From Planctomycetota bacterium (GTDB lineage Bacteria > Planctomycetota > B15-G4 > JADJEK01), in assembly GCA_044225365.1 (NCBI GenBank), contig JBGAIQ010000009.1, positions 96,462 through 160,461 of the forward strand: a stretch of DNA of 64,000 bases. The letters are read 5' to 3'. Below are positions 942 through 52,166 of the stretch, in pieces (positions within the stretch are counted from its first letter, which is position 1; each line of letters begins with the position of its first letter). A model generated the notes under the pieces. It had not been told where the DNA came from and did no database searches. It worked only from the letters and a program-made list of their open reading frames with translations. Position numbers and translations under genes: made by a program.

Positions 942-952
942 GGCTCCTCCTC

Positions 953-4978: not shown

Positions 4979-5096
4979 CGGGAATCCTCGAAGCGGTGGC
5001 GATGGTCGGGACCACCTGGGACGAGCGAGGATGCCGCGGCGACGTCACGCGGGATTCACGACTTTTTTTCCGTCCGTGGACGCCGCGGCGAACCGA

Positions 5097-8664: not shown

Positions 8665-8775
8665 CACGTACTTTCGTTGTCAGGATCGAAGCTGGCGATT
8701 ATAGTCCGTGGCAGCGTAGGGCAAGCGTAAGCGATTGCGAGCGCGCTTTTAACGCACAGCAAACGGCAAAACCCA

Positions 8776-27032: not shown

Positions 27033-27742
27033 CAGGGCTGCTTGCTCTTGTTCCGCGTCCGGTAGTACTGCAACAGGAGCTCTCGATAGCGGTCCGGGAA
27101 CTCGTTCTGCGAGAGCTTCTGGAACATCTCCTGGACCTTCGGCGGCAGGACGCCCCAGCGGCCGGCGACGTTCTCGCGCTGGTACTTCTCCTTCTCCGAC
27201 GGCGGATCGACGCCATCCGCCTTCTGCTGATCCGGCTTGCTCTTGTCCGGCCCACCATCCTTCGGCTGGCCCGATTTCTCCTCGGGCTTCTGCTTGCCCT
27301 CGCCCTTGTCCTTCTCGCCTTGCTGCTTCAGCTTGTCGACCTCGGGATCCTTGCCCCGCTCGTCCTGCTGTTTCTGCTGGGGAGAGTTCTTGGGATCGGG
27401 CTCGCCCGACCCCTTGCCGCCGCTGTTGGACTGCCGCTTCGCCATGCGGACGAGTTCCTCGATGTCCGTCACGGCCTGCGACTGCTTGGATTGGATGTCC
27501 TTCAGCAGCTTGTCGAGATCGGCTTTCACCTGCTCGATCCTCGCGGCGGCATCCTTGGGCGCATCCTTCGCAGCCTGCAACAGCAGCTCGTCGATCTCGC
27601 CCATCTCCTTACGGATCTTGGCTTGGAGCTCCTTCGCCTTGATCTCGTCGGCTTGTCCCCCGTCCTGCGCGACCGCGCGCTGCGCGCTCACGCCCGTGAG
27701 GATCGCCGCGACGCAGAGGAATCGCTGGATGCGCGTGTTCAT
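27032..27742 (-). CDS. exported K/Q/E-rich low-complexity coiled-coil protein (236 aa)
   Basis: Signal peptide MNTRIQRFLCVAAILTGVSAQRAVAQ, then a highly charged, likely disordered region (KQQGEKDKGEGKQKPEEKSGQPKDGG...). Start overlaps the stop of the upstream gene (ATGA-type). Confidence 0.6.
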   Translation of the reverse strand: MNTRIQRFLCVAAILTGVSAQRAVAQDGGQADEIKAKELQAKIRKEMGEIDELLLQAAKDAPKDAAARIEQVKADLDKLLKDIQSKQSQAVTDIEELVRMAKRQSNSGGKGSGEPDPKNSPQQKQQDERGKDPEVDKLKQQGEKDKGEGKQKPEEKSGQPKDGGPDKSKPDQQKADGVDPPSEKEKYQRENVAGRWGVLPPKVQEMFQKLSQNEFPDRYRELLLQYYRTRNKSKQP

Positions 27743-30525: not shown

Positions 30526-30569
30526 GGTGTGCCTTACGACCGATTGCGCGCGGCGGGGTTCCATCGTTG

Positions 30570-34149: not shown

Positions 34150-37100
34150 TTCGAAGTCTCGTAGACGGCGAGAGCCGTTCCGGACAGGACCGCGAAGTGG
34201 CGCGGGGTTGCAACGCTCTGCACCGGCGCGCGTTCCGAGGTCAGCGGGATCTCGACCGCGGCGAACGTGCCGGCATCGGGCGCGAACGTGAATAGGTACG
34301 TGCGCCGGGGATTGCCCGACGCACGCCGGATCTCCGCGAGACCGTAGACGTCACCGGTTCGGGTGAGCGACGCGCGGAACGTCGGACTCCCGGGGGGCAG
34401 GGCCGTCATGTCGACCGTTCGTTCGATCGCTTTCTTGTCGAGGTCGATCACGACGAGGCGATCCCGCTTCGCCGCTCCCGACCCCGTGCCCGCGCCGACG
34501 AGCACGAAGCGGCGCTTGGACGTGCCGCTTCCCGTGTCGAAGGCTCGCAGGTTCTCGAGGCCCATGACACACTGTTCGACCGTTCCCGTCCGCGGCTCAA
34601 GTCGGCTGACCGAAACGATCCCGCGCGGGGATCGCGTGTAGGTCGGCGAGGTTCCCTTGGGCAACAGGAATCCGTTCGTGGTCGGAACGAGCCACTCGAA
34701 CGACATCGGGAACGGCACTTCCTTCACGTAGGCGAGCGGCCGACCGTCCTCGAGGTCGAACGACGCGAGCGACTTCGTCTCGGCGTTCTCGCGACCGAGC
34801 GTCAACACGACGCCGAACTCCTCGTAAGCGCGCGCTTCGAACCGCTTGTTCATCGCGAGGTTCGAGATCGCGAAACGCTTCACGCCCGTGAGCGCATCGA
34901 GCGACACGACCGTCGGCTGCTCGCTCGCGCCGATCGCCAGCACGGCATCGCGGACGGCTTGGATTTCGAGGCACTCGAAATCGAGCGGCGTCGACCACAG
35001 CACCATGCCGGTCGCGGTCTCGACGGCGACGATCATCGAAGCGCCTTGCGTCGGTGGCGTGAGCAGCGCGAAGATCAGGCTGCCCGCGGAATCGACCGCC
35101 CCCACCGAGGCCCCGGAACTCCCGGCGAGGCTCGTATCGAAGCGGGTGATACCGCTCTTCTTGTCGATCCCGAACAGCCGATCCCGCTGCCGAAAGACGA
35201 TGCGATCTCCGATCGAGAACGCTCGCAGCGGGTCGAGGTCCGACGCATAGGCCGGCACGCGAACGTGCCAGATCTCCGACAACGTCGCGAGGTCGATGCG
35301 ACGCAAGACGGCGTCGGGCGCTCCGAGTTGCTCCTCCTCGTACACCAGGATCGCATCCTCGGAGTCGAATTCGACGGGGACGAGCACGCTGCGCGTCACC
35401 TGGAGTTCGAGCGTCTTCGCCGCAGGATCGGGGAGTCGCTCGAGGCGCGCCCTCTCCGCGACCGCGGCCGGCTCGGCCCCGAGGGCTTCGAGATCACGGG
35501 TTGCGACGCTGCGCACGTCCGAGGCCGGCTCGACGACGCTCGCGGCCGCCGAACCCGTCGCGACGATGCGCTTCAGCATGAGGCGAGCGAGCGCGGAATC
35601 GCCAGCGAGCGCGGCGCCGCGCGCAGCGAGGAGGAGAGCGTTCTGCCGATCGCCGTCGTCGTTCGCGGAAGTGAGCAGCGGCGCGACGACGCGGAACACC
35701 TCGGAGTACTCCTTGCGTTCGAGGCGGATCATCGCGAGGTCGAGACGCGCCCGCGGCGCCGCGGCGGCGTTCGGGAATCGCATCACGATCTCGAGGAGGG
35801 CCGCCGCATTGCGCGACGCGCTCGCCGCGCTGCGGGCGTCGCTCGCGGCGGCGTCGAATTCGGCGTAGATCGATCGGCCGTACTTTGCGATGGCATCCGC
35901 GATGAGTCGCTCGGCGTGCTTGCCCGCAGTTCCACCCGGGAAAGGGGTGTCGCGATACAGATCGATGATCCGCTGCCAACTCGAAACCGCCGCCTTGGCG
36001 TCGCGGCGGCCGAGCGCATACACGGCGCGCCGATCGAGGGTGTAGAGACCCGCGGGGATCGGAGTGCCGTAGGCGTTCGCCGCGAAGGCGTACTGCGCAT
36101 TCGGACAGCGCTCGTCGATCCAGTCGAGGACCGCCGGGATCCGCGAAGGATCCGCAGCCTCGAGCGAGTGGATCAACTGTTCGCAGGCGCGGAGGAAGTC
36201 GGCGTCGTCGAGGGAATGCTCCGCCTCCGCGAATCGGTGCTGCGCGGCCACCGCTGCGAGCCCGGACTTGTCGGCGCGTTCTGCGAGTTGATGATGCGCC
36301 ACCGCGAGTCGCTCGTGTGCGCGACGAACCAGGCTCGCATCGGTCGCGGGGGACGAGATCGATGGATCGGCCAGTACGCCCTCGAACTCCGTGATCGCAC
36401 GCTCGACGTTACCGCGCAGTGCCAGCAACTCTCCGAGATCGACGTGATCGGCGAGCGTGCCCTTGCCGCTGCCGATCCGCGTCTCGACGCGCTGGATCAG
36501 GTTCTCGAGATCGTAGAACACCGTCATCTGGCTCGCGGAGACGACGATCTGGAAGTCGCGATGCACCAGGAGATTCCCGGGCAATCCCGCCGAGTCCGAG
36601 AAACCCCAGTCGAGCGTGCGATCGCGCAGATCCATTCCCGCCTTGGTCCGCTGGTACCGCAATTCGAGCAGGCCTTCGGCGAGCGGTTGGAAGAGGACAC
36701 CGTCGCCGAGGCAGCCGCGGCCCGCGTACGACCGCGCCTGGCGGAAGCGATAGGCCCCGAGGAGTCGACCGTTGCGAAGATCGTGGAAACCGATCCCGCT
36801 CGGCCCGGAGAAGATCACGGCCCCCTGATCCACACCGAGCACGGTGCAGTAGTCGAAGGGATGGTTCTTGTCCTGATTGCACTCGACCGACCAGAGGATC
36901 TTGCCCGTCGACGCCTCGTACGCGTAGGCCGAATCCGAGTCGAGCGGAGTGACGATGCAGACTCCCTCGCGCACGATGGCCGGATCGTTGATCCAGAACC
37001 GCGGCCGCTCGAAGGTGCGTCGATAGTGACGCGTCGCCTTGATGGGAATCGCTTCGTACTGCGCGAGCCAGCGAGGATTGCCGGTGAGACCGTCGAGGCA

Positions 37101-38780
37101 GCCGGAGAGCCCGAGATTCGTCGACAGGAAGATCGAGCCGTCCTTCTCCGCGACCATCTGGGTCGTGAATTCCTTGAACGGCTTGTTGAACATCGTCAGC
37201 TCCTGCTGACCGATGACGAGCGGCGTCTTCCACAGGAGCGAGCCGTCCTGCAGCGAGAGGCACATCGCGTAGACGTTGATCGCGCCCTCGAGCAGCGAAC
37301 CCGTCACGTAGATCCGATCCCCCACCGCGACGGGCGCCGAGAGGATCGAGACACGATTGATGAAATCGTGGAGCGGGCGATCATCGCGCCGCATGCGCCA
37401 CAGCAGCCTGCCGTTCTCGACGTCGACCGCGTAGAGCCCGCGCCGCGGAACGGTCTGGGTGATGCGCGTCTGATCGAACTCCACGTCCCGGCCGTGGGGC
37501 GCGGGTTCGAGGAGGGCGCCGAGAACCACGTGATCGGAGATCGTCGCGACGAGCGGCAAGGAGCGGGCCAGGGTCCCGAAATCGTTGTCCATTCCGGGCA
37601 TCGGGCTGTCCCAGAGCAGACTGTTGAAGTCGTAGAGCTGGGGCGCGACGGAGCCCGAGAGCGGCCCGATGTACTTCCACTTCGGCGTGGCCGAGTAGAA
37701 CGACCAGGCGCGGATCGAGAGACCATCGCAGAGGACGATGACATCGGAGGCGACGACCGGATGGAACGGACTCGATTCCCGGATCTCGCGAACCCGACGC
37801 CACGGATTCTCGTCACCACTGAAGGAGTCCGTCGTCCAGCGCGACGCGAACGTCAGCGCCTCGGGATCGAACTGGACGAGTCCATCGTGGGCGCCATTGC
37901 CGCCGACCACCGGCCACGCGGCGTCCCTCGGGGGCATCATCGAGCCGAACTCCGGCAGGATCCCACGGGCTTTCGCCGGCGAGCCGGAGACCGTGACGGA
38001 GGGATCGCCGAATCGCTCGATCCAGCGCGACGCCGGCGAGTCCGAACGGCCGAACGCCGCCGACGCGGCCGCGAGGAATGCATCCCCGGATGCCTTCTCC
38101 GCTGTGCTCGATACGGATTCGAATGCCAGCTTGCGGCCGTAGAAACGCTCGGATGCTTCGAAATCACCGCGCTCGAGGGCGAGGCGACCGAGACGATCGA
38201 GCGCGCGTTGCCCTTCGGGAGTGAGTTCCCAGAAGCGCACGAACTCGATCAGCTTCGAAGGATCCTGGGTCTCGGCGATCGCCCGCCAGAGCGACTCGGA
38301 TCGCAGGCGAGCGAACTCGGTGTAGGCGGCGCGACCCTCGGCCGGGAACGACGCGATGAGGTACTTTGCGTACTCCGCGGCCCCGACGTAGCGCGGCGGG
38401 TCGTTCGCCACTTGGTAGACGTGTGTCGGGTAGAGAGTGATCAACTCCTGGAGCGAGTCACACGCGACGCGGTATTCGCCGCGCCGCATCGCATCGCGCG
38501 CCGACTCGAACAGCACGCGGACCCGCGCCGTCGTCTGCACCGCGAACGTCGCGACGGCGCTGTGATCCGGGTCGTACTTGAAGTTCGGGTCCTGGATCGA
38601 CTCCCATCCGCCGAACGGCAAGAACGGTTCGTCCTGGGCCCGCAGGACCGAAGTCGTCAGGAGGCCAACGACGACCGCGGCCACCGCCGCGCCGGAGGCA
38701 GTGGAGATGCGAGCGGCCGGAACGGCGGCCGTTGCTCGCGGCGCGCCCTCGTCCGTGCGGTGTTTCGAAGCGAGCTTCAC
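34146..38780 (-). CDS. giant exported PQQ-like beta-propeller repeat protein (1544 aa) with TPR-like helical regions
   Basis: Signal peptide AAVAAVVVGLLTTSVLRAQDEP. Repeated beta-propeller blade patterns of PQQ/BamB type (GRLLWRMR, GSLLWKTPL, GKILWSV, GMVLWSTPL). Intervening helical repeat regions. Confidence 0.75.
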   Translation of the reverse strand: MKLASKHRTDEGAPRATAAVPAARISTASGAAVAAVVVGLLTTSVLRAQDEPFLPFGGWESIQDPNFKYDPDHSAVATFAVQTTARVRVLFESARDAMRRGEYRVACDSLQELITLYPTHVYQVANDPPRYVGAAEYAKYLIASFPAEGRAAYTEFARLRSESLWRAIAETQDPSKLIEFVRFWELTPEGQRALDRLGRLALERGDFEASERFYGRKLAFESVSSTAEKASGDAFLAAASAAFGRSDSPASRWIERFGDPSVTVSGSPAKARGILPEFGSMMPPRDAAWPVVGGNGAHDGLVQFDPEALTFASRWTTDSFSGDENPWRRVREIRESSPFHPVVASDVIVLCDGLSIRAWSFYSATPKWKYIGPLSGSVAPQLYDFNSLLWDSPMPGMDNDFGTLARSLPLVATISDHVVLGALLEPAPHGRDVEFDQTRITQTVPRRGLYAVDVENGRLLWRMRRDDRPLHDFINRVSILSAPVAVGDRIYVTGSLLEGAINVYAMCLSLQDGSLLWKTPLVIGQQELTMFNKPFKEFTTQMVAEKDGSIFLSTNLGLSGCLDGLTGNPRWLAQYEAIPIKATRHYRRTFERPRFWINDPAIVREGVCIVTPLDSDSAYAYEASTGKILWSVECNQDKNHPFDYCTVLGVDQGAVIFSGPSGIGFHDLRNGRLLGAYRFRQARSYAGRGCLGDGVLFQPLAEGLLELRYQRTKAGMDLRDRTLDWGFSDSAGLPGNLLVHRDFQIVVSASQMTVFYDLENLIQRVETRIGSGKGTLADHVDLGELLALRGNVERAITEFEGVLADPSISSPATDASLVRRAHERLAVAHHQLAERADKSGLAAVAAQHRFAEAEHSLDDADFLRACEQLIHSLEAADPSRIPAVLDWIDERCPNAQYAFAANAYGTPIPAGLYTLDRRAVYALGRRDAKAAVSSWQRIIDLYRDTPFPGGTAGKHAERLIADAIAKYGRSIYAEFDAAASDARSAASASRNAAALLEIVMRFPNAAAAPRARLDLAMIRLERKEYSEVFRVVAPLLTSANDDGDRQNALLLAARGAALAGDSALARLMLKRIVATGSAAASVVEPASDVRSVATRDLEALGAEPAAVAERARLERLPDPAAKTLELQVTRSVLVPVEFDSEDAILVYEEEQLGAPDAVLRRIDLATLSEIWHVRVPAYASDLDPLRAFSIGDRIVFRQRDRLFGIDKKSGITRFDTSLAGSSGASVGAVDSAGSLIFALLTPPTQGASMIVAVETATGMVLWSTPLDFECLEIQAVRDAVLAIGASEQPTVVSLDALTGVKRFAISNLAMNKRFEARAYEEFGVVLTLGRENAETKSLASFDLEDGRPLAYVKEVPFPMSFEWLVPTTNGFLLPKGTSPTYTRSPRGIVSVSRLEPRTGTVEQCVMGLENLRAFDTGSGTSKRRFVLVGAGTGSGAAKRDRLVVIDLDKKAIERTVDMTALPPGSPTFRASLTRTGDVYGLAEIRRASGNPRRTYLFTFAPDAGTFAAVEIPLTSERAPVQSVATPRHFAVLSGTALAVYETSK

Positions 38781-38951
38781 GTCGATTACCCCGCTAACGC
38801 GGAGACGATCGGGCGCAGCCTCCCCTCGGAACCGGCAAGGTTGCGAGGCGTCGCGGCAATCGTCTCCGTAAGTCCAATCAATGTATCGTCTTCTTTGCCC
38901 GGATGATCCAGTGTTCGGAGTTCGTGAGCGGCCGGGTCCGAGTCGTCGCCG

Positions 38952-40907
38952 TCAGTGCGGGTGGGAGACCTGGGAATCGTCGCTCGGACCGCGCGCCAGC
39001 TTCTCGAGCCGCAGGCGATAGGTACGAAGGATCTGCTCGCGTGACAGCAGCCCAATCAATTTCCAGCGATCGCCATCGGGAACCACGATCGGTACCTCGT
39101 CGCACTCCTCCTCGGAGAGCTTCTGGAGGGCCGTGAGCAGCGGGTCGTCCGGGCGGACGATCGGGTAGGCATCGCTCATCATCTCCGAGACCAGGACGAG
39201 TCGGTGGACGCTGGTGTCGAGCAAGAGGTCGCGAACGTCCTCGATCGTGACGATGCCGAGCACGAATCCGGCTTCGTCGAGCACCGGAAAGCACTGCTGC
39301 CGCGTCCGTCGCAGCATCTGGACCATGTCGGCGATCGTCTGACCCGGCTTCAGTGTCGCAACCTTCGAATGTTGAGCCGTGGCGTTCTCGACGGTGAGTG
39401 GCGCGAGCACGTCGACGCTGTACGAACCGAGGTGTGCCGGCGACTCGAAGCGCGATCCAACCTGGGCCGTGTAGACCGACGCGCGACCGGTGAACACGTA
39501 GGCGAGCGCGCAGACCAGCACGAGCGGCAGGAGCAGTCCGTACGAGCCGGTGATCTCGCACACCATGACGAGTCCCGCGATCGGCACCTTGGTGATACCG
39601 GCGAACACACCGCTCATGCCGACCAGGACGTAGGCCCCCGGATCGGTGACGACGTCGGGGAACAGGAGATGCGCGAGCTGTCCGTAGCCCGCACCCACCA
39701 TCGCGCCGATGTAGAACGCAGGGCCGAACACGCCTTCACCCCCGCGCGTCGCGAAGGTGATGCCCGTCGCGAGCGATTTGGCGAGCGCGAGTCCGAGCAG
39801 GAAGAGCACGCCGCGCATTCCGGGGCCCGCGAGGCTGCCATCGATCGCTTGCTGCACCCAGCCGTAGCCGGTGCCCCACACCTCTGGAACCGCGAGAACG
39901 AGCACGCCGAGGAGGAGCCCGCCGATCGCCGGCCGAGCGAACGACGGCAGCGTGAAGCGCGCGAAGATCTTGTCGAAGACGCCCACGCGCAGCGTTTTCA
40001 GCGCCATGACGTAGACGATGCCGGCGAGCGCGCAAACGAGTCCGAAGACAGCGTAGATCGGCAGCTCGAGCGGCGACATCAGTTTGAACGCCGTCGCATG
40101 GAAGACCGGTGTCCAGCCGTAGACACAACCGAAGGTCGCGTACGCCGAGAGCGACCCGATGATCGCGGGTACGAACGCCGTGTACTCGAACTCCGGATTG
40201 CGATACGGCGACTCGATGGCGAAGATCGCGCCCGAGAGCGGTGCGCGGAAGATCGCCGCGAACCCGGCCGCCGCGCCGACGAGTAGCGAGATCCGCCGAT
40301 CCGCAGAGCGCAGCTTGAACGTATCGGCGATCTTCGAACCGATCGCCGCTCCGAGTCCGACCGCCGGCCCTTCGCGACCGACCGACCCACCGGAGCCGAT
40401 GACGACGAGCGAACTGAGCGCTCGCAGGACTGGATCCTTCAATCCGAATTTCCCGCGTCGCTGATGGAACGCATCGAGCACGCCGTCGGTTCCGCCGCGG
40501 GTGGGATCGGGCCGTGCGATCGTGAAGAGCAGGCCCGCGAGGAGTCCACCGAGGCCGGGCACCAGGACGAGCATCCAGCGAATCGGTTCCGCGACCGCGC
40601 TGCCCGTGGGCTCGGGCGGATCGCCGCCGGGCACCGGCGGATGGAACGACGCGAGGCGATGCGTGAAGAACGCGACCGCGAGCCGCAGCGCCTCGAAGAA
40701 CACGATCGACACCGCGCCCGCGAGGACACCGATCAGCACCGCGAGGAAGAACCACTTCGCCGCGTGGCGGATGTCGGGCAGCGACGTGAACGAGGCCGGA
40801 CGCGACGCGTCCCGGCCGACAGGATGGAACGGCGCGATACGAGTCGTCGCGCTCGCCGCCGGATCGGGCCGTTTCAGATCAGATTGAATCTCTTGCGTAG
40901 GATCCAC
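38952..40907 (-). CDS. ClC-family chloride channel / H+-Cl- antiporter with C-terminal CBS pair
   Basis: Selectivity-filter motifs GSGGSVGREGP and GAIFAIE/GxFxP-type segments. ~10 TM helices. C-terminal CBS pair (CFPVLDEAGFVLGIVTIEDV, VPIVVPDGDRWKLIGLLSREQIL). GTG start at 40907 proposed (ORF track start 41192 is Arg-rich junk). Confidence 0.85.
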   Translation of the reverse strand: MDPTQEIQSDLKRPDPAASATTRIAPFHPVGRDASRPASFTSLPDIRHAAKWFFLAVLIGVLAGAVSIVFFEALRLAVAFFTHRLASFHPPVPGGDPPEPTGSAVAEPIRWMLVLVPGLGGLLAGLLFTIARPDPTRGGTDGVLDAFHQRRGKFGLKDPVLRALSSLVVIGSGGSVGREGPAVGLGAAIGSKIADTFKLRSADRRISLLVGAAAGFAAIFRAPLSGAIFAIESPYRNPEFEYTAFVPAIIGSLSAYATFGCVYGWTPVFHATAFKLMSPLELPIYAVFGLVCALAGIVYVMALKTLRVGVFDKIFARFTLPSFARPAIGGLLLGVLVLAVPEVWGTGYGWVQQAIDGSLAGPGMRGVLFLLGLALAKSLATGITFATRGGEGVFGPAFYIGAMVGAGYGQLAHLLFPDVVTDPGAYVLVGMSGVFAGITKVPIAGLVMVCEITGSYGLLLPLVLVCALAYVFTGRASVYTAQVGSRFESPAHLGSYSVDVLAPLTVENATAQHSKVATLKPGQTIADMVQMLRRTRQQCFPVLDEAGFVLGIVTIEDVRDLLLDTSVHRLVLVSEMMSDAYPIVRPDDPLLTALQKLSEEECDEVPIVVPDGDRWKLIGLLSREQILRTYRLRLEKLARGPSDDSQVSHPH

Positions 40908-43333
40908 TCGGCGGAGAGAAGGGCGAGGAACAGGAGCAACGTGCTCCAAGACGACCACAGTTCGCGGCGCCGTGGCTCGCCGGTCAAGCGCTCGCGCACG
41001 TCGCCTTCGATCGTCGCGAGTGCGTCCTTGATCTCGTGGACCCCAAAGTAGCGTCCGCGAGTCGCCGCTGCGACCTGTTCGAGTGCATCTCGCGCAAGTA
41101 CCGGATTCTCCCACTCGCGCTTCGGCACTTCGACGGTGAACGACTTCGGCGACAGATGTCCCGCGTCGCGACCGGCGGCATCCTCGAGCCATGCCTGGTA
41201 CGAACCCGGGAGCGCAAGTCGGATCGTACCCTGGAAACGACCCTCGGCGGGATCGACGTTCGTGAGTTCGAGTTGCGTGACCACACCTCGCGGATCGGCC
41301 AGGTGCGCGACGTACTTCGCGTCCGTGAGCGGACCGAAGTCGACGTTGCGGATGCGCGCGTTCAATCGGATCGGCTCATGGATGTCGTAGACCGACTTGT
41401 CGGTCGTGAGCTCGAAGCGCTTGTTGGTGCGGCGCAACTTGTTGAGCGCCACATAGCGAACGACGGCTCGCCAGAACCGTTCCGGATACCGGTTCCCGTA
41501 GTACTTGCGCCACAGCCACGTCGAGTCGAACCCGACGAACATCGTGCGCCCCGCCGGATAGAACGACGAAGCGAGCAGGACGTGCTTGCCGAAGGAGTTG
41601 CCGTTCTCCGGATGCCGGAGCATGACCTCGGCGCCGCCCTTCGCCTTGCGCGCCGCGAAGTACCACTCCTGCGGGGGAAGGCCGACAGCCGGGTCCTCCC
41701 ACAACTTGCGGTTCATCGCGAGATCCTTCTCGAGCCGCACCGGCTCCGGCGGATCGAGCGGGTTCTCGAGCATCGGGCGAAACGGCTTCTTCGCCGAATC
41801 GAGGCGCGCCCGCTGGTCCTCGGCGTCGTTACCGACGACGACCGGAAGGAGATCCTCGAGCGGCGTTCCGATGTAGGAGACGGGATCGTCGAGTTCGCCC
41901 GCGAGGAAAACCAAGCCGCCGCCGAGTTCGACGAACTGGCGGAGGTTCTTCAAGGCGTCGTCCGCCGCCTGCGTCGACGTCGGCACGATGAGGTACGGGT
42001 TCACGTCGCCCAGGATCACCACGTCGTACGTGAGCAGCGCTTCCTTGGTCGGGGGGAACGCCGTGAGCGCGGGGACGTTGTCGGACGACTCCTGGATGAA
42101 GTCCTTGTCCGCGTCGAGCAACAGGCACTGCACCTTGAAGTTCTTCGAGCGCAGCAGGATGTTCATCAGGAAACGGTATTCCCAGCGAGCGTAGCCCTCG
42201 ACGTAGAGGACCTTCACCTGCTCGGGATCGACGCGGAGATGGTGGTTGCGGACGTTGTCGTCCTGGAACTGCTCGCCCTGGAGCGGCGCCACCTGGATCT
42301 CGAGATCGAACTCCCCTTCGCGTTCCGGGCGCCAGTAGAGGGTCTCGAGTTGCTCGCGCCCGCTCTGCTGCGCGAGCGTGATCTCCTTGCTCGACAGGAC
42401 TTCGCCGCTCTCGCGCGACTTCAGCACGAGGCTCGTCGTGCGGCCTTCGTAGCCCTTGCTCGAGATCGTGACGTCGAACGCGACGTCGTCGTTCACGAGC
42501 GCGACGTCGGGTGCGCGCACGGCCTGGATCGCGATGTTGCGCGGTTCGTTCGGGTCGCCCACGCCGATGCAGTGGACTCGCACGCCGTCGAGCGACGCCT
42601 GACTCGCGGCTTGCGCGAGATCGAGCCCAGCGTTCGATCGTCCGTCGGAGATGACGATCATCTCTTGCACGCGATCGCCACGATTCTCGATGTCGGTCAA
42701 CGCATCGGCGATCGCCGACCCGAGCCGCGTGGAGTTGGACGATGCCGACCAATCGTCGAGCGAATCGAGGCTGCGCAATTCGTCGCCGAACGCCATGAGC
42801 CGCACGTCGTTCTTGACCTTCAAGGCGTCGAGCAGCGTGGACTGATTCTTCAGGATCGCCTTCACCAGATCGACACGCGGCGTCGTCGCGAGCGCGTCCT
42901 TCGAAGGCAGCTTGGCGAGGTCGGTGAGGGCGTCCGCGGCGTCCTTGTCGTTGTACGAGTCGGCCCGTGTCATCGATGCGCTCGCGTCGAACAGGATCGG
43001 CAAGACCGATTTCTCGATCTCGACCTGCTGCGTCTCGAGCACCGGACGGAATAGAACGACGAACAGAACCGCGAACGCGAGCGCGCGCAGACCGGCGAGC
43101 AGACCGCGCTGGCGCGCAGTCAGTGGCGCGCGTTCCTTTCGGTAGGCGTACACCGAGGCCGCGATCACTCCCGGGACGATCAACAGCGCGATGATCCAGC
43201 CGGCGGGCGCCTCGAGGAACTTGAAGGTCGTGATGTCGTGCGAAACGTTCGGCAACACGGAGTTCGGTGCGTTGGAAGACGTACCCTGCGGAATCGCAGC
43301 GAGCCAGAGTGCGACCAGGCGATCCTGAATCAC
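40874..43333 (-). CDS. vWA-domain membrane protein (BatB/BatD-like, ~819 aa)
   Basis: N-terminal TM (GWIIALLIVPGVIAASVYAY, LRALAFAVLFVVLF). vWA MIDAS motif ILFDASASM. Large C-terminal domain and terminal TM (LWSSWSTLLLFLALLSAEWIL). GTG start at 43333 overlapping the upstream stop (GTGA). Confidence 0.8.
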   Translation of the reverse strand: MIQDRLVALWLAAIPQGTSSNAPNSVLPNVSHDITTFKFLEAPAGWIIALLIVPGVIAASVYAYRKERAPLTARQRGLLAGLRALAFAVLFVVLFRPVLETQQVEIEKSVLPILFDASASMTRADSYNDKDAADALTDLAKLPSKDALATTPRVDLVKAILKNQSTLLDALKVKNDVRLMAFGDELRSLDSLDDWSASSNSTRLGSAIADALTDIENRGDRVQEMIVISDGRSNAGLDLAQAASQASLDGVRVHCIGVGDPNEPRNIAIQAVRAPDVALVNDDVAFDVTISSKGYEGRTTSLVLKSRESGEVLSSKEITLAQQSGREQLETLYWRPEREGEFDLEIQVAPLQGEQFQDDNVRNHHLRVDPEQVKVLYVEGYARWEYRFLMNILLRSKNFKVQCLLLDADKDFIQESSDNVPALTAFPPTKEALLTYDVVILGDVNPYLIVPTSTQAADDALKNLRQFVELGGGLVFLAGELDDPVSYIGTPLEDLLPVVVGNDAEDQRARLDSAKKPFRPMLENPLDPPEPVRLEKDLAMNRKLWEDPAVGLPPQEWYFAARKAKGGAEVMLRHPENGNSFGKHVLLASSFYPAGRTMFVGFDSTWLWRKYYGNRYPERFWRAVVRYVALNKLRRTNKRFELTTDKSVYDIHEPIRLNARIRNVDFGPLTDAKYVAHLADPRGVVTQLELTNVDPAEGRFQGTIRLALPGSYQAWLEDAAGRDAGHLSPKSFTVEVPKREWENPVLARDALEQVAAATRGRYFGVHEIKDALATIEGDVRERLTGEPRRRELWSSWSTLLLFLALLSAEWILRKRFNLI

Positions 43334-45648
43334 GGGCGGCCTCCGAGCGAGCGACGACCGAACCAGGCGGCGAGCGCCATCTCCGCGGCGAGCAGAGCGA
43401 TGATCACGTAGAGCATCGGCTTCCACAGCTCACCCTCGTGCGACGCGACCGATTCCTGCTTCTTCACTTCGATGCGATCGAGGATCGTCAGCGGGACGTT
43501 CGGGTAGATCGAAGCGAGAGACTTCGCATCGATGCGTTCGGGGTCGCTCTCGACGGGATCGAGATTCACGGCGTACGGAATGGTCTTCTTCTCGCCCGCG
43601 CTCGATGCAGCCGCGAGCGGGAACTCGAGGTCGAGGGAGTAGATGCCGGGCTCGTACGTCCGACTGAAGACGGGCAGGACGAATCGGCCGTGTTCCTTCT
43701 CGTCGAAGTTGGCCTCGAGCGCCACGCGCTCGTTGTTCGGTAGGACGATCGCGATCGACGAGGGGATCGCGCGCTCGGTGCGGCGCAAGCGATCGGAGAT
43801 GCCGATGTTGAATTGATCGAGGTCCGGCATCGTGAGGAACGCCGCGATCTCGTGGATCAGCGAAAGGTATCCCATCACGTTGTCGCCGTCGGCGAAGGAC
43901 GCCCAGCTCGAATCGATGCTCGTGCCGAAGAGGACGACGCGACCGTGCCCCGCGGGCTTCTCGAGGATGAGCGGGCTCGGCGATGCCGCGTCATCGTCGA
44001 GCGAGAGGACCGTGGCCGTCGCCGCATCCTTGTTCCCGACCACCACGCGAACGTAGCGCATCACGGGGATGCGGAGCTCCGAAGTGAGTCGCGGATCGCG
44101 GAACAGTTCGAGCAAAGGGTGCGAGAGGTCCTCGACTCGCGGGAGCACCGCGCGCGACTTGTCGGCAGCGGCGTCCCCTCGGAATTCGACGAGGCGGGCG
44201 GGCAATAGACCGGTCCCGTCCTCCCGATACAGGCGTTCGTTCCAGGCCCGCAGATCGAGATCGTCGCCGGCGAAGATCAGGAGGCCGGCACCATTGCGCA
44301 CCGTATCCTCGAGTTCGCGCGCGATCTTCTCGTCGATCCTTCCGACGTCCGCGAGCACGATCATGTCGTAGTCGGAGAGCGTCTCGGCCCCGAGATTGAA
44401 TCGCCGATCGTCCATCGTCTTCACGAGGTACGGCGAGAGGCTCGGCTGGTCGTCGACGCCCGGATTCAGCATCGCGGCGAACTCGGAGGTCGATCGCAGG
44501 TCGTCGCCCTTGTCGTACTGGCCGTCGACGACGAGGACGTTCACGCGATCGCGAACCGGGAACGCGAGGAAGCGGCGGTCGTCCCCGGGAATCTCGTCCT
44601 CAGCGATCTCGAACTCGACGCTCGCGAACCCCTCGTCCTTCATGCTCGCCGCGAACTCGACGCTCGCCGTTCCGTGCGCGGGGACGTCGAACGCCACGGT
44701 CCGCGCCTGCTCGCGCCGTCCATTCAGGACGAACGACCCTCGCACGCCGTGCTCCGCCGTCGCGCCCTGGTTCTTCACCGTCGCGGTGAACGAGACGACG
44801 TTGTCCTTCACCACGTTCTTCGGCGAGGAAACGAGATCCTCCACCGTCAAGTTGTGGGACGGCTCGGAGTCGCCGACGTCGACGATGACGAACGAGGCAT
44901 CTCGCGACGTCGCGCGACGAAGCGCTGCGGCGGGCAGCGCTTCGTTTCGACCCTCGTGCGTCGGCGGTGACGCCGGTTCCTTGCCCTTGCCGAGGTCAGC
45001 GGTGCTCGGATCGTCGGGATCGAAAGTCAGTCGCTGGAGATCGCTGAAGAGGAAGACCTCGTGATGCGAAGTCGCGGGAGCGAGCACGAGTTCGTCGACC
45101 AGTTCGACTCCGCGAACGAGATCGCAACCGCGCCACTCCGGCTTCAACCGCGAGATCGCGTCGCGCACGAGATCGAGGCGGGTGGACTCCTGGACGAGGA
45201 TCTGCGGAGCCGCGGAGAGCGAGACGAGGGTGACGCGATCGCCACGCTCGGCGGACAATTGATCGATGAGCTGCCGCGCCTGCTCCTTCGCGCGATCGAG
45301 CGCGCTGTCGCCGCCCCGGGTCGTCCGCGTCATCGAGTACGAAGTGTCGATCATCACGACGAGATTGCGCTGCGAATTCGTGAGCATCGACAGCGGATTC
45401 GACAGCGGCACGAACGGCCGCGCGAGCGCGAGCGCGAGCAGCACGATCAACGCGCAGCGCACGAGCAGGAGCAGGAGTGACTCGAGCGTGAGGCGACGAC
45501 GCGTCTTGCGATAGGCCTCGAGCAGGAACTCCTGCGCCGCCCACTTCACGGGCGTGAATCGCCGCCGATTCAGCAGATGGATGATCAGCGGCACCGCGAA
45601 GAGGAGCGCTCCGGCGGCGAGCGCTGGGCTCGCGAAGGAGAAGTTCAT
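43330..45648 (-). CDS. BatA-like vWA-domain membrane protein (772 aa)
   Basis: Aerotolerance-BatA-type N-terminus MNFSFASPALAAGALLFAVPLIIHLLNRRR. vWA MIDAS VVMIDTSYSMT. C-terminal TM LYVIIALLAAEMALAAWF. Start overlaps the DUF58 stop. Confidence 0.8.
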   Translation of the reverse strand: MNFSFASPALAAGALLFAVPLIIHLLNRRRFTPVKWAAQEFLLEAYRKTRRRLTLESLLLLLVRCALIVLLALALARPFVPLSNPLSMLTNSQRNLVVMIDTSYSMTRTTRGGDSALDRAKEQARQLIDQLSAERGDRVTLVSLSAAPQILVQESTRLDLVRDAISRLKPEWRGCDLVRGVELVDELVLAPATSHHEVFLFSDLQRLTFDPDDPSTADLGKGKEPASPPTHEGRNEALPAAALRRATSRDASFVIVDVGDSEPSHNLTVEDLVSSPKNVVKDNVVSFTATVKNQGATAEHGVRGSFVLNGRREQARTVAFDVPAHGTASVEFAASMKDEGFASVEFEIAEDEIPGDDRRFLAFPVRDRVNVLVVDGQYDKGDDLRSTSEFAAMLNPGVDDQPSLSPYLVKTMDDRRFNLGAETLSDYDMIVLADVGRIDEKIARELEDTVRNGAGLLIFAGDDLDLRAWNERLYREDGTGLLPARLVEFRGDAAADKSRAVLPRVEDLSHPLLELFRDPRLTSELRIPVMRYVRVVVGNKDAATATVLSLDDDAASPSPLILEKPAGHGRVVLFGTSIDSSWASFADGDNVMGYLSLIHEIAAFLTMPDLDQFNIGISDRLRRTERAIPSSIAIVLPNNERVALEANFDEKEHGRFVLPVFSRTYEPGIYSLDLEFPLAAASSAGEKKTIPYAVNLDPVESDPERIDAKSLASIYPNVPLTILDRIEVKKQESVASHEGELWKPMLYVIIALLAAEMALAAWFGRRSLGGRP

Positions 45649-46562
45649 CGCCGCGAACCTCGCCGTTCGCGCAGCGCGAGGTACGAAGTGAGTGCGACGT
45701 CGAGCGGCGTGTCGGTGAGGAGCACGCGGAAGTCGACTCCGTTGTTGAGACAGCCCTTCTTCAACTTGGCCTGATGCGCGTTGAAGACCTCAAGGTACGC
45801 GGCGCGCAGGGCCTGAGGATCGGCGATCAGGTCGCCCATCCCCTCGAGGCCCTCGAACTTCATCATGCGGTCGAACGCGAAGTCGACTTCGTCACGATCG
45901 AGCACCTGGAAGACCATGACGTCTTGCCGCTTGGTCTTGAGGGCGCGGATCCCCGCGAGCACTTTCTCGGGCGGCGCGAAGAAGTCCGAGATGACGGCGA
46001 CGATCGATCGCGGCGGGAGTCGCGTAGCGAGTTCACGCAGTGCGAGCCCAGGGTCGGTCTTCTTCACGAGCTTCACGCGCTCGATCGCGTCCGTGATCTT
46101 GAGCAGGTGCGAGGGCCGCGTCGCCGCGGGAACCCATTTGTCGACGTCCTCGCTCGTGAGCGCGAGCGCGGCGGCATCGCGGTGATCGAGGACGAGGAAC
46201 GACAAGGTCGCCGCGACGAATGCGCCGTAACGGAACTTGCTGACCCGATCGACGCCCGCGTAGCTCATGGACTCCGAGCAGTCGAGGACGATCGACAGCG
46301 TGAGGTTCGTCTCTTCCTCGTAGCGCTTGATGTAGTAGCGATCGGATCGTCCGAAGATCCGCCAGTCGAGATGGCGCAGGTCGTCGCCGGGCACGTATTC
46401 GCGATGCTCCGCGAACTCGACGGAGGCCCCGCGATGCGGGCTCTTGTGCATCCCGGCCATGAATCCTTCGACGGCCTGGCGCGCCTTCAGTTCGAGGCGC
46501 CCCAGCTTGTCGAGGACCTTAGGATCCAACCACTGGCGGTAGTCGTGTGTCGCTGAGGACAT
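45645..46562 (-). CDS. DUF58 protein (MoxR-associated)
   Basis: DUF58 signature FAEHREYVPGDDLRHLDWRIFGRSDRYYIKRYEEE...LDCSESM. Classic position between MoxR and the vWA proteins. Confidence 0.9.
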   Translation of the reverse strand: MSSATHDYRQWLDPKVLDKLGRLELKARQAVEGFMAGMHKSPHRGASVEFAEHREYVPGDDLRHLDWRIFGRSDRYYIKRYEEETNLTLSIVLDCSESMSYAGVDRVSKFRYGAFVAATLSFLVLDHRDAAALALTSEDVDKWVPAATRPSHLLKITDAIERVKLVKKTDPGLALRELATRLPPRSIVAVISDFFAPPEKVLAGIRALKTKRQDVMVFQVLDRDEVDFAFDRMMKFEGLEGMGDLIADPQALRAAYLEVFNAHQAKLKKGCLNNGVDFRVLLTDTPLDVALTSYLALRERRGSRR

Positions 46563-47562
46563 CGGATTCAGCGCGCGGAACGCTTTCGAGGATGCGCTTC
46601 ACGAGGTCGTCGGACGTGATGCCCTCCGCCTCAGCGCTGAAATTGGGAAGGATGCGATGGCGCAGCACGGGCTGCGCGACGGACCGAACATCGTCGCCGA
46701 GGACGTTCGCATGTCCCTTGAGGAGGGCGCGCGCCTTGGCAGCGAGGACGAGGAATTGCGATGCGCGCGGACCAGCGCCCCATGCCACCGACTCCCGGAT
46801 GAAGCCGGGCGAATCGGGTTGGGTCGGGCGCGAGACGCGCGCGAGGCTCATGGCGTAGCGGATCATCGAGTCGTGGATCGGGACCCGTCGCACGAGTTGC
46901 TGCAGCTTCAGGATCTCCTCGGCGGAGAGAACGGGGAGCGGCTCGGCGGATTCGCGCGCCGTCGTCCGACGAACGATCTCGAGTTCCTCGACATCGCTCG
47001 GATAGTCGATCCGGATGTTGAACATGAAGCGATCGAGCTGCGCTTCGGGCAGGGGATAGGTGCCTTCCTGTTCGATGGGGTTCTGCGTCGCGAGGACGAA
47101 GAACGGCTGACCGAGCGAGTGCTTCTTGCCCGCCACGGTGACCTGGTACTCCTGCATCGCCTCGAGCAACGCCGCCTGGGTCTTCGGGGGCGTACGGTTG
47201 ATCTCGTCGGCGAGGATCACGTTGGCGAACAGAGGCCCGGGGATGAATCGCATCTCGCGCTCGCCTGTGCTCTTGTTCTCCTGGATGACCTCCGTGCCCG
47301 TGATGTCCGACGGCATGAGGTCCGGCGTGAACTGAACGCGGTTGAAGGAGAGAGACAGGGTCCGCGCGAGGGTCGAGATGAGCAACGTCTTCGCGAGACC
47401 GGGGACTCCCGTCAGGATGCAGTGGCCGCGCGCGAAGAGCGCGATCAGGAGCTGATCGACGACTTCGTCCTGCCCGACGATGACCTTCTGGATCTCGGTC
47501 TTCAGGCTCGTGTACGCCGCGCGGATCTGCTCCACCGCGGCGAGGTCTTGCGACTCGGTCAT
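46519..47562 (-). CDS. MoxR-family AAA+ ATPase
   Basis: Walker A GVPGLAKT, Walker B ILADEINR, sensor and Arg-finger regions. C-terminal MoxR helical lid. Start set at MTESQDLAAVEQIRAAY (47562); the track ORF start at 47622 adds 20 residues. Confidence 0.9.
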   Translation of the reverse strand: MTESQDLAAVEQIRAAYTSLKTEIQKVIVGQDEVVDQLLIALFARGHCILTGVPGLAKTLLISTLARTLSLSFNRVQFTPDLMPSDITGTEVIQENKSTGEREMRFIPGPLFANVILADEINRTPPKTQAALLEAMQEYQVTVAGKKHSLGQPFFVLATQNPIEQEGTYPLPEAQLDRFMFNIRIDYPSDVEELEIVRRTTARESAEPLPVLSAEEILKLQQLVRRVPIHDSMIRYAMSLARVSRPTQPDSPGFIRESVAWGAGPRASQFLVLAAKARALLKGHANVLGDDVRSVAQPVLRHRILPNFSAEAEGITSDDLVKRILESVPRAESDVLSDTRLPPVVGS

Positions 47563-47677
47563 TGCGAAACTCCAGGTACGGCCGTGATTCCGCGGGACGT
47601 GAGGCCCCGCAGATCCAACCATCTAGGATACGATCGGCAAACGAGAGGCGAGAGACGAAATCGTTCGTGAGATCTCG

Positions 47678-49876
47678 TCACCGGCGCTGAACGACCGCGG
47701 TGAACTCCGGTGACGCGGACAGGATCGTCCCGCCGCTCGCCGTCAGATTTCCGAAGTACGAAGAATCCTGGTTCTCGTACGCCGTCGGCGGCGGCGCGAC
47801 GGCGCCGATCCACTTCAGCTCCGCACCGAGATCGAGCACCAGTAGCCGCCGATTCGTCGGCACGAACATGAGGTCACCCACGAATGCGACCTTGCCGAAG
47901 CGCTGCTCCTGCAGATCGAGAGGCGGAGTGATCCACGAACTCTTGTCGTTGCCATCGAGATCCGTGGCTTCGAAGAATACGCTGTCGACGTTCGCGCCGC
48001 TGACGTGCGCCGATTCGAAGATCAAACGGCCGTGCTCCTCGTCGAATCCGAGTAGCGTCGTACGCTCGCTCTTGAACAGCGGATCGTTCAGGAGGACGTC
48101 GCCGCGCTGCGACGGCGAGCGAGCGAGGACATAGAGGTATCGCGAGTCGGAGGGCGTGACGACGATTCGATCGCCGGTCACGATCGGGGGCGCCGTTGTC
48201 CACCCGCCCGTGATGTAGATCTGTTCGGGGGTGTACTTCCCCCGGTCCGTCGGCGTGATCCGATGGTACTTCACGATCCAGTCGATCGCGCCCGTTTGCG
48301 CGTCGACGGCCGCGAAGACTCCCACGTTGGTCTGAACGTAGGCAAGACCGTCGGCGACGACGACCGGCGAAGGTCGCGAGCGCCGTGCTTCGGTCGGCTG
48401 ATTGCGCATCTCGTACTCGGAGACGTCGGCCGCCGAGGCGATGAATCGGCTGTACACGAGCGCGCCACTCTTCCGATCGAATGCGAACAGGGCGCACTCG
48501 GAAGCGGTCGTGAGACGCGTCGCGGTGTAGAGGACGAGATCCCCCGCGATGGCGGGTGGAGTCTCGAACGCATAGCCCTCGAGCGCGTCATCGCGCTGTT
48601 CGGGTCCGGCATAGCGCCATGCGAGTTTGGGTGGAAGCGATGCGTCGCGGCCGATCGTGACGGCGCACGCGGCGCTGCGCGTACCGGCCGCCCCGACGGT
48701 CACGGCGAAATAGAGACGCTCGCCATCGAACACTCCGCCGACGCTCCGTGCCGTACGATCGATGGCCTCGGTCGTGGTCGAGAGGACCTTGGAGTACGGG
48801 AACTCCGCAGCGATCGGATCCCGCGGGTTGCCCGGCTGCGAAGCGTTGTGCTTGCCGCCCGCGAGGACGTGACGATGGAGATAGAGGCCACATCGCCCGA
48901 GAACAGCGAGACTGTCGCCGATGGGAATCACGGTCGTCGCCGGAATGGCTTCGAATTCGACGTCCGACAGCAGGTTCGTGCTGTTCCGGTTGAACGCCCT
49001 CTGCTCGGAGAGTTCCTTGACCGACTGACGCCCGACCTGGAAGGACTCGAACTTGCCGAGGTCGGCGCCGCTGGAGTCGGGCTCTTCGAATTCCGCATCG
49101 AACGATCGAACAAACTCGGAGAGCGGCATCGACTTGCCGGCGACCGTCACGGGTTCCGCCGCGAGCGAGTTCGCCCGCTCACGAATCGCGTCGAATTCCG
49201 AACGATCCCGCCGCGCCGCGGCCATGGCGAGGGCGCGTGCGAGATCGATCGTGCGCAATGCCGTGGAGTCGATCGCCTGTAGCTCGAGCAGCGCGTCGAA
49301 CGCGCGGTGACCGTTGTCGAAGTCGCCCTGTTCGACGGCGAGCGCGAGACTCTCGCGCAGCGCCGCTACCGCCGTGGCCGCGAGCGGAAAGCGGAGGCCG
49401 ACGTCGAGGAGTCGACGCGGCGAGTGCGAAGGGCGGGTCTGGGCGAGAGCGGCCGCGGCGGCGGATCCGAAGAGCTCTGTGTATCGCGCGCGCGCTTCGG
49501 GACCGAGGGCCAGGAGGCGCCGGCGCGCCGCGCCGGACGCCGAGAGCCAGGTCCGCGCGCCGAATTCGACGACGCCGTCCGAACTCTCGATCATCCGTTG
49601 ATAGCGCTGGACCGCTTCCGCCCAGTCCTTGCGCTTTGCCGCATCGTCGGCACCGAACAAATCGGCCTTCGCATTGTTGCTGACGACGACGAACGCGCCG
49701 TTCGTGAAGTTCTCGTCCTCACGCGGCATCACCTGCGCGCGAGCCAACGTGGCGAACACGACGAGGGCCGCGACGCAAGCGGTCGTCTTGCTTCGGAGAG
49801 AGGACGAGAACGCGCAGCGACGAGCGATCAGTCGTCGCGTGACGCTTCGTCGATACCGACCTTGCCTTGTGTCCAC
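47678..49876 (-). CDS. exported PQQ-like beta-propeller repeat protein (~730-755 aa)
   Basis: Signal peptide h-region ACVAALVVFATLARAQV. Repeated blade patterns (GDLVLYTAT, GALVYSRF, GAIDWIVKY, RIVVTPSDSRYLYVL). The start is uncertain: ATG 49945, GTG 49876 and a CTG at 49834 are all in frame. The later ones reduce overlap with the upstream ftsB-like gene that ends at 49828. Confidence 0.7.
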   Translation of the reverse strand: MDTRQGRYRRSVTRRLIARRCAFSSSLRSKTTACVAALVVFATLARAQVMPREDENFTNGAFVVVSNNAKADLFGADDAAKRKDWAEAVQRYQRMIESSDGVVEFGARTWLSASGAARRRLLALGPEARARYTELFGSAAAAALAQTRPSHSPRRLLDVGLRFPLAATAVAALRESLALAVEQGDFDNGHRAFDALLELQAIDSTALRTIDLARALAMAAARRDRSEFDAIRERANSLAAEPVTVAGKSMPLSEFVRSFDAEFEEPDSSGADLGKFESFQVGRQSVKELSEQRAFNRNSTNLLSDVEFEAIPATTVIPIGDSLAVLGRCGLYLHRHVLAGGKHNASQPGNPRDPIAAEFPYSKVLSTTTEAIDRTARSVGGVFDGERLYFAVTVGAAGTRSAACAVTIGRDASLPPKLAWRYAGPEQRDDALEGYAFETPPAIAGDLVLYTATRLTTASECALFAFDRKSGALVYSRFIASAADVSEYEMRNQPTEARRSRPSPVVVADGLAYVQTNVGVFAAVDAQTGAIDWIVKYHRITPTDRGKYTPEQIYITGGWTTAPPIVTGDRIVVTPSDSRYLYVLARSPSQRGDVLLNDPLFKSERTTLLGFDEEHGRLIFESAHVSGANVDSVFFEATDLDGNDKSSWITPPLDLQEQRFGKVAFVGDLMFVPTNRRLLVLDLGAELKWIGAVAPPPTAYENQDSSYFGNLTASGGTILSASPEFTAVVQRR

Positions 49877-50109
49877 CGGGCCTGCACCACTCGCGACAGC
49901 GTCGTCGGGTCGCGGGTCTCGAGAGCTTGCTTCTGGAGTCCCCATCGCTCGGCTTCGTCGCGCAGCTTCACGAGCTCCTGTTCGGAGTGCTTCTCCGCGT
50001 CGAGGAGCGCGCGCCGTCGGAACTCCGCGGGAATCGTTCGCCCGAAGTAGACGGCGACCATCAACCCGAGAAGGAGGAACAGGGCACCATTGCGTTGAAC
50101 TGCGATCAT
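49828..50109 (-). CDS. FtsB/DivIC-like septum-formation initiator (93 aa, TM + coiled coil)
   Basis: MIAVQRNGALFLLLGLMVAVYFG TM helix, then a coiled-coil EQELVKLRDEAERWGLQKQALETRDPTTL resembling PF04977. Located directly downstream of eno, as in many proteobacteria. The track ORF (to 50427) has junk upstream. Confidence 0.55.
   Translation of the reverse strand: MIAVQRNGALFLLLGLMVAVYFGRTIPAEFRRRALLDAEKHSEQELVKLRDEAERWGLQKQALETRDPTTLSRVVQARWTQGKVGIDEASRDD

Positions 50110-50194: not shown

Positions 50195-52166
<1,972 letters not shown>

Follow-up and report, generated by a model that had tools for sequence, protein, structure and literature searches.

We analysed a 64,000-nt window of contig JBGAIQ010000009.1 from a Planctomycetota bacterium, in which an uninterrupted, tightly packed array of minus-strand genes runs from position 49945 to position 24482, as judged from the open reading frame (ORF) listing and Pfam/NCBIfam scans (Table 1). 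With a probability of about 0.7, we interpret this region as a lineage-specific, expanded envelope operon built around an MRP-type (MoxR-proper) AAA+ ATPase, a DUF58 protein and BatA-like vWA proteins, to which beta-propeller proteins, alpha/alpha-toroids and a ClC transporter were added. The conserved core would comprise seven genes, which code for MoxR, the DUF58 protein, a BatA-type vWA protein (BatA-vWA), a vWA protein with a GATase1-like domain (vWA/GAT), and three proteins named p778, p976 and p236. In a Phycisphaerae-like planctomycete clade, ClC, a propeller protein (bprop2) and a toroid (toroidA) would have come in after the fourth core gene and ahead of the fifth, and a second toroid (toroidB) and a putatively redox-dead thioredoxin-fold gene (Trx-like) appended, with a shorter paralog of bprop2 (bprop1) lying upstream. 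MoxR, DUF58, BatA-vWA and vWA/GAT are referred to below as cassette A, and the genes from bprop2 to Trx-like as cassette B.

To our knowledge, few bacterial gene clusters without a known mechanism are as widespread as the MRP-type MoxR-DUF58-BatA operons, and we know of no client or structure identified for them. Mutations in MoxR operons affect envelope integrity, aerotolerance or stress resistance. In this locus and its relatives, DUF4175-type proteins, namely an immunoglobulin (Ig)-domain membrane protein and a predicted long coiled-coil periplasmic protein, recur in MoxR-DUF58-BatA clusters; this association appears to be undescribed in the open literature that we searched, since a full-text search gave four papers with DUF4175 in them, none with a title on MoxR, DUF58 or Bat operons (judged mostly by titles). 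The planctomycete variant also names BamB-like propellers, toroids and ClC as candidate partners. We regard the locus as a useful lead for the open question of MoxR function and not as a new kind of system.

DUF4175-type genes and the MoxR cassette

Distant homologs of p778 were found directly after MoxR-DUF58-BatA in three of the compared loci (designated by L numbers), L017 (Gemmatimonadota), L018 and L020 (Gemmatirosa kalamazoonensis NZ_CP007129), and two genes after it in L016. In L019, the contiguous order is MoxR-DUF58-BatA-vWA/GAT-p778 ortholog-p976-like-p236-like; the p976-like protein (685 aa) matches DUF4175 at profile positions 610-797, and the gene that follows it matches the C-terminal motif of p236 (E=5e-5). 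The L016-L020 clusters therefore share with the window the core order MoxR, DUF58, BatA-vWA, (vWA/GATase1-like) and a DUF4175-family p778 homolog. ClC, propeller and toroid genes are all absent from the L019 operon, and none of the loci L016-L020 has a ClC, BamB-like propeller, toroid or Trx gene. Since p778 homologs lie beside MoxR operons and L019 carries both gene sets in one order, the two modules of the window appear to be halves of one ancestral operon, and the comparison supports p778 as the probable gene that ties cassettes A and B together. The original prediction, made from the letters of the window, had proposed a functional link between the MoxR cassette and the downstream module, each headed by a propeller gene. 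The link is backed by L016-L020 and by synteny within the clade, but it runs via the DUF4175-type genes and not via the propeller heads; that the system assembles a periplasmic structure or controls its quality, as had been proposed, is plausible.

The two DUF4175-type proteins of the window cover complementary parts of the family profile and are not paralogs. The match of p778 spans profile positions 192-325 (N-terminal to middle part) and that of p976 positions 646-795 (C-terminal part); the Pfam gathering cut-off for DUF4175 (PF13779) is 27.3 bits, which p976 exceeds, and the p778 homologs P0036, P0038 and P0039 reach 32-42 bits. No NCBIfam match (TIGR02302-like) was found for p778 or p976. 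DUF4175 is a single protein of 1,100-1,234 aa in L016-L018, and probably in L020, and its function appears to be split over two genes in the window and in L019. The architecture of the family is present as well, with three N-terminal transmembrane (TM) helices in p778 and a low-complexity extracytoplasmic composition in p976, which is exported, consists of 46% A/E/K/Q and is predicted to be long and helical. In the AlphaFold2 (AF2) model of p778 (pLDDT 88), Ig-like sandwiches in tandem follow the TM helices and a helical bundle forms the C-terminus; the proteins that match it in structure are of a generic multi-Ig or MG-domain kind. The third gene of this group, p236, is conserved in 10 loci. 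Outside the planctomycetes, L016-L018 have DUF4159 genes upstream of MoxR, joined in L017 and L018 by TPR/Peptidase_MA_2 genes, and the MoxR of L016 has an additional FHA-like (Yop-YscD_cpl) N-terminal domain.

In cassette A, MoxR (ORF 46519-47622, likely start 47562) matches AAA_3 with 211.8 bits and AAA_lid_2 with 66.7 bits (E=1.5e-18) in Pfam, has intact Walker A (GVPGLAKT) and Walker B (VILADE) motifs, and finds its best PDB match in 2r44 (E=2e-78). Together with the adjoining DUF58 and vWA genes, these sequence features place it among the MRP-type ATPases. Hydrophobicity analysis found neither a signal peptide nor a TM segment in MoxR and DUF58, and both are therefore predicted to be cytoplasmic; a signal peptide or TM segment is predicted for all other products of the array. 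The claim that every gene of the array encodes an envelope protein thus does not hold strictly.

The DxSxS metal ion-dependent adhesion site (MIDAS) is kept in all three vWA-type proteins (DCSES in DUF58, DTSYS in BatA-vWA and DASAS in vWA/GAT). BatA-vWA, which matches BatA (56.3 bits), TIGR02226 (67.9 bits) and VWA_2 (48.4 bits), has TM segments at residues 8-26, 58-76 and 741-759, which form an N-terminal hairpin and a C-terminal TM segment, and its vWA, CARDB and DUF7408 domains are predicted to be periplasmic. An N-terminal TM hairpin also opens vWA/GAT and is followed by vWA, GATase1_like and MG2-like Ig domains, with PDB entries 2gk3 and 3soz matching the GATase1-like part; the cut-off is exceeded by both TM segments of the hairpin but not by a hydrophobic stretch near the C-terminus, which may be a further TM helix. 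Because both BatA-type proteins have a strongly basic loop within the N-terminal TM hairpin, their vWA domains are predicted to lie in the periplasm, in agreement with Borrelia BB0173, for which a periplasmic vWA domain was shown by experiment (PMC5700661). With its BatA/TIGR02226 double-TM N-terminus and MIDAS-bearing vWA domain, BatA-vWA shows the sequence features of the Bat/RL3499 family.

The genes of the array are closely joined. As read from the sequence, ATGA at 45648-45645 links BatA-vWA and DUF58, and GTGA at 43333-43330 links vWA/GAT and BatA-vWA; the original prediction had reported both overlaps correctly, and all the genes it described were recovered where it had placed them. MoxR and DUF58 overlap by 44 nt, which is kept in L003 and L008. 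Overlaps of 4 nt or 1 nt occur between bprop2 and toroidA, p976 and p236 (4 nt), and p236 and toroidB, and p976 probably starts at ATG 30573, which gives an ATGA overlap with p778. That ClC starts with GTG within the last of the vWA genes, as predicted earlier, was also confirmed, since the sole in-frame start codon ahead of the first TM helix is GTG 40907, 34 nt inside the vWA/GAT gene, and this overlap is kept in L003 and L004. There are only two sizeable gaps, one of 115 nt between bprop1 and MoxR (47563-47677) and one of 171 nt between ClC and bprop2 (38781-38951). No unusually stable RNA structure (z = -1.7 and z = -0.5, respectively) and no terminator-like site was found in either gap, promoter and terminator scans gave results at chance level, and no sequence conservation across relatives was detected in 38781-38951.

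Propellers, toroids and ClC in the planctomycete clade

Synteny was examined by tblastn mapping of bprop2 homologs and their contigs, and of Genome Taxonomy Database (GTDB) loci from metagenome-assembled genomes of Planctomycetota/Phycisphaerales. The full order cassette A-ClC-cassette B was found in L003, L004, L008 and L010, and in L011 and L013 cassette B comes after ClC, as far as the end of the contig. In L014, where bprop2 identity falls to 27%, cassette A is followed by two Peptidase_C25 genes and then by cassette B. Cassettes A and B are therefore adjacent in the window and in five further loci. In L005, another locus with cassette B, the upstream genes on the same strand (1-9763) encode GGDEF and STAS proteins, type II secretion system E/F components (ATPase and platform), pseudopilins and a GAF histidine kinase; in L009, of which only 3.3 kb lies upstream, a GAF histidine kinase and a GspH-like pseudopilin (1-3136) precede cassette B.

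The presence of an exported beta-propeller gene upstream of MoxR, as originally predicted, was confirmed by the AF2 model of bprop1 (pLDDT 82, pTM 0.87), which begins at ORF residue 50 and shows a signal helix, a TPR-like helical domain (model residues 41-237) and a propeller (289-705). Homologs share the signal-like segment at residues 55-73, which the NCBI call of 683 aa cuts off. The TGA stop of the neighbouring 93-aa ORF overlaps codons 39/40 (CTG ATC) of the long bprop1 ORF, and no canonical start codon occurs between that stop and the signal peptide; the true start could be ATG 49945, with a 118-nt overlap with the 93-aa ORF, or a non-canonical CTG. The counterpart of the 93-aa ORF in L002 has a weak FtsL match (E=1.4e-3), and the 93-aa product may be FtsB/FtsL-like.

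BamB is an eight-bladed PQQ-like non-catalytic scaffold that serves as an outer-membrane protein assembly factor. The bprop1 propeller superposes best on BamB, which gave the closest solved structures in Foldseek (TMt about 0.7). Unlike BamB, both bprop1 and bprop2 begin with a TPR-like domain, and the propeller regions of bprop2 number two (BamB-type matches at 447-533 and 1166-1307). Scores against TIGR03300 and NF008351 were 15-30 bits versus cut-offs of 285-423, so that no BamB equivalog match was obtained, and the resemblance is one of fold only. There are no BAM genes nearby.

Pairwise alignment and structure prediction had been proposed as a check on whether the two propeller proteins are paralogs, and they proved to be distant ones. 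BLASTP gave two collinear matches between bprop1 and bprop2, one in the helical N-terminal region (E=3e-4) and one in the propeller (E=1e-8), and in tblastn the bprop1 propeller matched bprop2 orthologs at all loci, with E-values as low as 4e-20. They belong to one family of TPR and BamB-like propeller proteins, of which bprop1 is a shorter member. A word-index homolog search with bprop1 returned only itself and one relative, but more members came to light in an exhaustive HMMER search: 190 cluster representatives have E<1e-10, and they fall into two size classes, one of about 650-750 aa and the other of about 1,400-1,600 aa. Roughly 26 representatives are close relatives within the bprop1 family. 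Orthologs of bprop2 were found in 13 loci with 26-52% identity. In contrast to MoxR, which is 93% identical in L002, bprop1 changes fast (43% identity in L002). Only the window and L002 show it upstream of MoxR, and L010 has an FG-GAP protein there instead; the case for bprop1 as a member of the MoxR system is weak. On an unrelated metagenome contig (L006, 10001-15624), a 1506-aa TPR-PQQ-PDZ protein that is a distant relative of bprop2 is followed after 18 nt by a MoxR gene with 63% identity to that of the window, with no DUF58 or vWA genes after it. Here a propeller gene and a MoxR gene stand together a second time, independently of the window.

Among the other additions, toroidA is the best-conserved gene of cassette B (55-70% identity), and toroidB is kept at 44-63% identity. 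Both score higher as squalene-cyclase/prenyltransferase repeats than as thioester domains (TED), and the thioester motif CxEQ is absent from both. The Trx-like protein probably starts at M89 of its longest ORF, in line with orthologs of about 429 aa. It contains no CxxC motif anywhere, and because of this it is predicted to be redox-inactive and is probably not a redox enzyme.

ClC, which is ClcB-like in the NCBIfam scan, was found by tblastn at the same position in six loci with 57-75% identity. Alignment to 1kpl and 8ga1 showed that the gating glutamate (GREGP) and the central Tyr (equivalent of Tyr445) are present. The position of the central Ser (S107) carries Thr, together with a 2-residue deletion, and that of the internal proton Glu (E203) carries Ser. 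With these residues, the protein may be a channel or an exchanger. Judged from its distribution, ClC is a clade-specific accessory, as close relatives keep it, L014 replaces it, and it is absent elsewhere. The two tandem genes that fill the ClC slot of L014 between vWA/GAT and bprop2 (5443-9751) encode gingipain-like Peptidase_C25 proteins with propeptides.

Related systems, a possible mechanism and alternative readings

Among the closest known systems is the operon RL3499-RL3502 of Rhizobium leguminosarum, which according to Vanderlinde et al. 2011 (J Bacteriol 193:2684) reportedly consists of MoxR, DUF58 and two membrane proteins. The two are alike in that an MRP-type MoxR and DUF58 are followed by large membrane proteins in a broadly conserved operon. 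They differ in that the window adds bprop1 upstream, the translationally overlapping ClC, and a 7-gene downstream block (bprop2, two toroids, the DUF4175 N/C pair, p236 and Trx-like). Membrane integrity and cell morphology depend to an important degree on RL3499 (PMC3893208), and a role in aerotolerance or envelope integrity is not known beyond Bacteroides fragilis, R. leguminosarum and Francisella (PMC5700661, PMC3893208). The BatI aerotolerance operon of B. fragilis and the spirochaete Bat loci (Borrelia BB0170-BB0176, Leptospira) also encode MoxR, DUF58 and BatA-N vWA proteins, but they go on with TPR (BatC), BatD and SH3/TPR (BatE) proteins, in whose place the window has the GATase1-like vWA protein, DUF4175-type proteins, propellers and toroids. 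Pfam scans found no BatD or SH3 domains in the array proteins.

If the array is an expanded MoxR operon, a cytoplasmic MoxR hexamer would partner the vWA-like DUF58 adaptor, and the two would spend ATP to assemble or remodel BatA-vWA, vWA/GAT and p778 in the inner membrane. The large domains of these three proteins in the periplasm, of the vWA (MIDAS), Ig-like and GATase1-like types, together with coiled-coil p976 and p236, would then form a scaffold that aids envelope integrity. The BamB-like propellers and the toroids could be clade-specific periplasmic partners or clients, and ClC a co-translated accessory ion transporter. Gene content, predicted topology, synteny and folds are what the analysis shows; a physical complex, its coupling to ATP and an envelope role are what we infer by analogy: remodelling of membrane vWA proteins follows MoxR/vWA pairs generally (PMC7159879), and the envelope role follows the phenotype of R. 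leguminosarum RL3499. A bolder claim, which we hold to be unlikely, is that the seven-gene core is an unrecognised periplasm-spanning, inner-membrane-anchored scaffold assembled by a cytoplasmic MoxR/DUF58 motor. If that were true, the long-sought client of MRP-type MoxR ATPases would be identified, and the clade would have recruited propellers, toroids and a coupled ClC, joining ion or pH control to envelope architecture.

Several points weigh against the array being one expanded MoxR operon. Across the whole MoxR family, it is unexplained how a cytoplasmic ATPase acts on periplasmic domains. The synteny sample is small, with about 19 informative loci, the p778 match to DUF4175 lies 1 bit under the gathering score, and the operon structure is deduced from gene spacing alone. 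Internal promoters could lie in the 171-nt and 115-nt gaps, ClC is followed by a hairpin in L004, and L005, L009 and L015 carry cassette B with neither cassette A nor ClC upstream, so that physical adjacency is not obligatory; the two modules, whose co-occurrence had been proposed as a check, stand next to each other in L003, L004, L008, L010 and L014 but not in these three loci. The 171-nt gap ahead of bprop2, the hairpin and the three loci with cassette B alone would also fit two independent neighbouring operons, namely MoxR-DUF58-BatA-vWA with a hitch-hiking ClC and a separate bprop2-Trx cassette with its own promoter and an unrelated function. We consider this arrangement improbable, since p778 homologs adjoin MoxR-DUF58-BatA in five unrelated loci, Gemmatimonadota included, cassette A of L019 runs directly into p778, p976-like and p236-like genes, and the adjacency of the cassettes holds down to the low bprop2 identity of L014.

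Two further readings give the propellers or the toroids a different role. In ternary conflict (defence) systems, which have been reported in planctomycetes, the vWA protein strictly has a C-terminal beta-propeller of about four blades, and the MoxR belongs to the bpMoxR clade, often with a GXXXTAKS P-loop (Kaur et al. 2020, PMC7159879). The MoxR of the window, flanked by TPR-like and propeller proteins, has a weak Pfam bpMoxR match (E=2e-11), and bprop1 or bprop2 could in principle be the TPR and propeller third component of such a MoxR-vWA-beta-propeller system. However, this match reaches 43.6 bits versus 211.8 bits for AAA_3, the P-loop is of the standard type and not the GXXXTAKS variant, no propeller match was obtained for any of the three vWA-type proteins, a DUF58/BatA pair is present instead, and the propeller proteins start with signal peptides and not with variable effector regions. 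Such a system is extremely improbable here, and we rejected this identity since neither a vWA propeller nor a bpMoxR-type MoxR was found. It is also very unlikely, if less so, that the MG2-like and Ig-like domains act jointly with TED-like toroids in periplasmic protease control or as an alpha-2-macroglobulin-like trap. The MG2 match in vWA/GAT, the weak TED_complement match in toroidB, the resemblance of the p778 Ig-like domains to the MG domains of A2ML1 and C3c, and the two C25 peptidases in the ClC slot of L014 would all agree with such a trap, but the Ig-like matches are generic, the toroids fit squalene-cyclase/prenyltransferase repeats better and are not in the conserved core of L016-L020, and the missing thioester motif led us to reject it.

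Gene content and surroundings of the array

The coordinates of the array genes are collected in Table 1. From bprop1 to Trx-like we counted 13 genes, or 15 consecutive minus-strand genes with the 93-aa ORF and enolase, in place of the 14 originally predicted.

Table 1. Minus-strand genes of the array in the 64,000-nt window, listed along the minus strand
Gene and product	Position	Strand	Matches and remarks
Enolase	50195-51781	-	Enolase_C/N
93-aa ORF, N-terminal TM and coiled coil	49828-50109	-	between enolase and bprop1
bprop1, exported, TPR-like helical domain and BamB-like beta-propeller	47678-49945 (longest ORF 755 aa)	-	weak PQQ_2, AF2
MoxR, MRP-type (MoxR-proper) AAA+ ATPase, predicted cytoplasmic	46519-47562	-	AAA_3 E=3e-63
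DUF58 protein, vWA-like, predicted cytoplasmic	45645-46562	-	DUF58 E=5e-39, VWA_2 E=6e-6
BatA-vWA, BatA-type vWA/CARDB/DUF7408 membrane protein	43330-45648	-	BatA E=4e-15, TIGR02226 E=7e-19
vWA/GAT, vWA/GATase1_like/MG2 membrane protein	40874-43333	-	VWA, GATase1_like, MG2
ClC with CBS pair	38952-40907	-	Voltage_CLC E=2.5e-87, CBS E=1.7e-19
bprop2, 1544 aa, exported, first gene of cassette B	34146-38780	-	PQQ_2 E=4.5e-18, TPR
toroidA, exported alpha/alpha-toroid	32941-34149	-	SQHop_cyclase_C E=9e-11
p778, homolog of the DUF4175 N-part	30570-32906	-	DUF4175 26.2 bits, AF2
p976, DUF4175 C-part, exported	27739-30573 (longest ORF to 30669)	-	DUF4175 31.4 bits
p236, small, exported, K/E/Q-rich, no family match	27032-27742	-	signal peptide
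toroidB, second exported alpha/alpha-toroid	25830-27032	-	SQHop_cyclase_C E=4e-8, weak TED_complement
Trx-like, exported thioredoxin fold without CxxC	24482-25765	-	Thioredoxin_2 and Thioredoxin_7, E about 1e-6

The region has a GC content of about 66%, and no Rfam matches were found in the window. At the far end of the array, the plus-strand ThiG and PP-loop genes converge on it. A strong AT skew (-0.42) at 28001-30000 falls in the same place as the A/E/K/Q-rich p976 and is explained by the amino-acid composition of that protein, not by a signal of replication or of a mobile element. A 1341-aa RHS-repeat/YD-shell protein (RHS_repeat E=7e-74), unrelated to the array, is encoded on the minus strand at the window's left end (953-4978).

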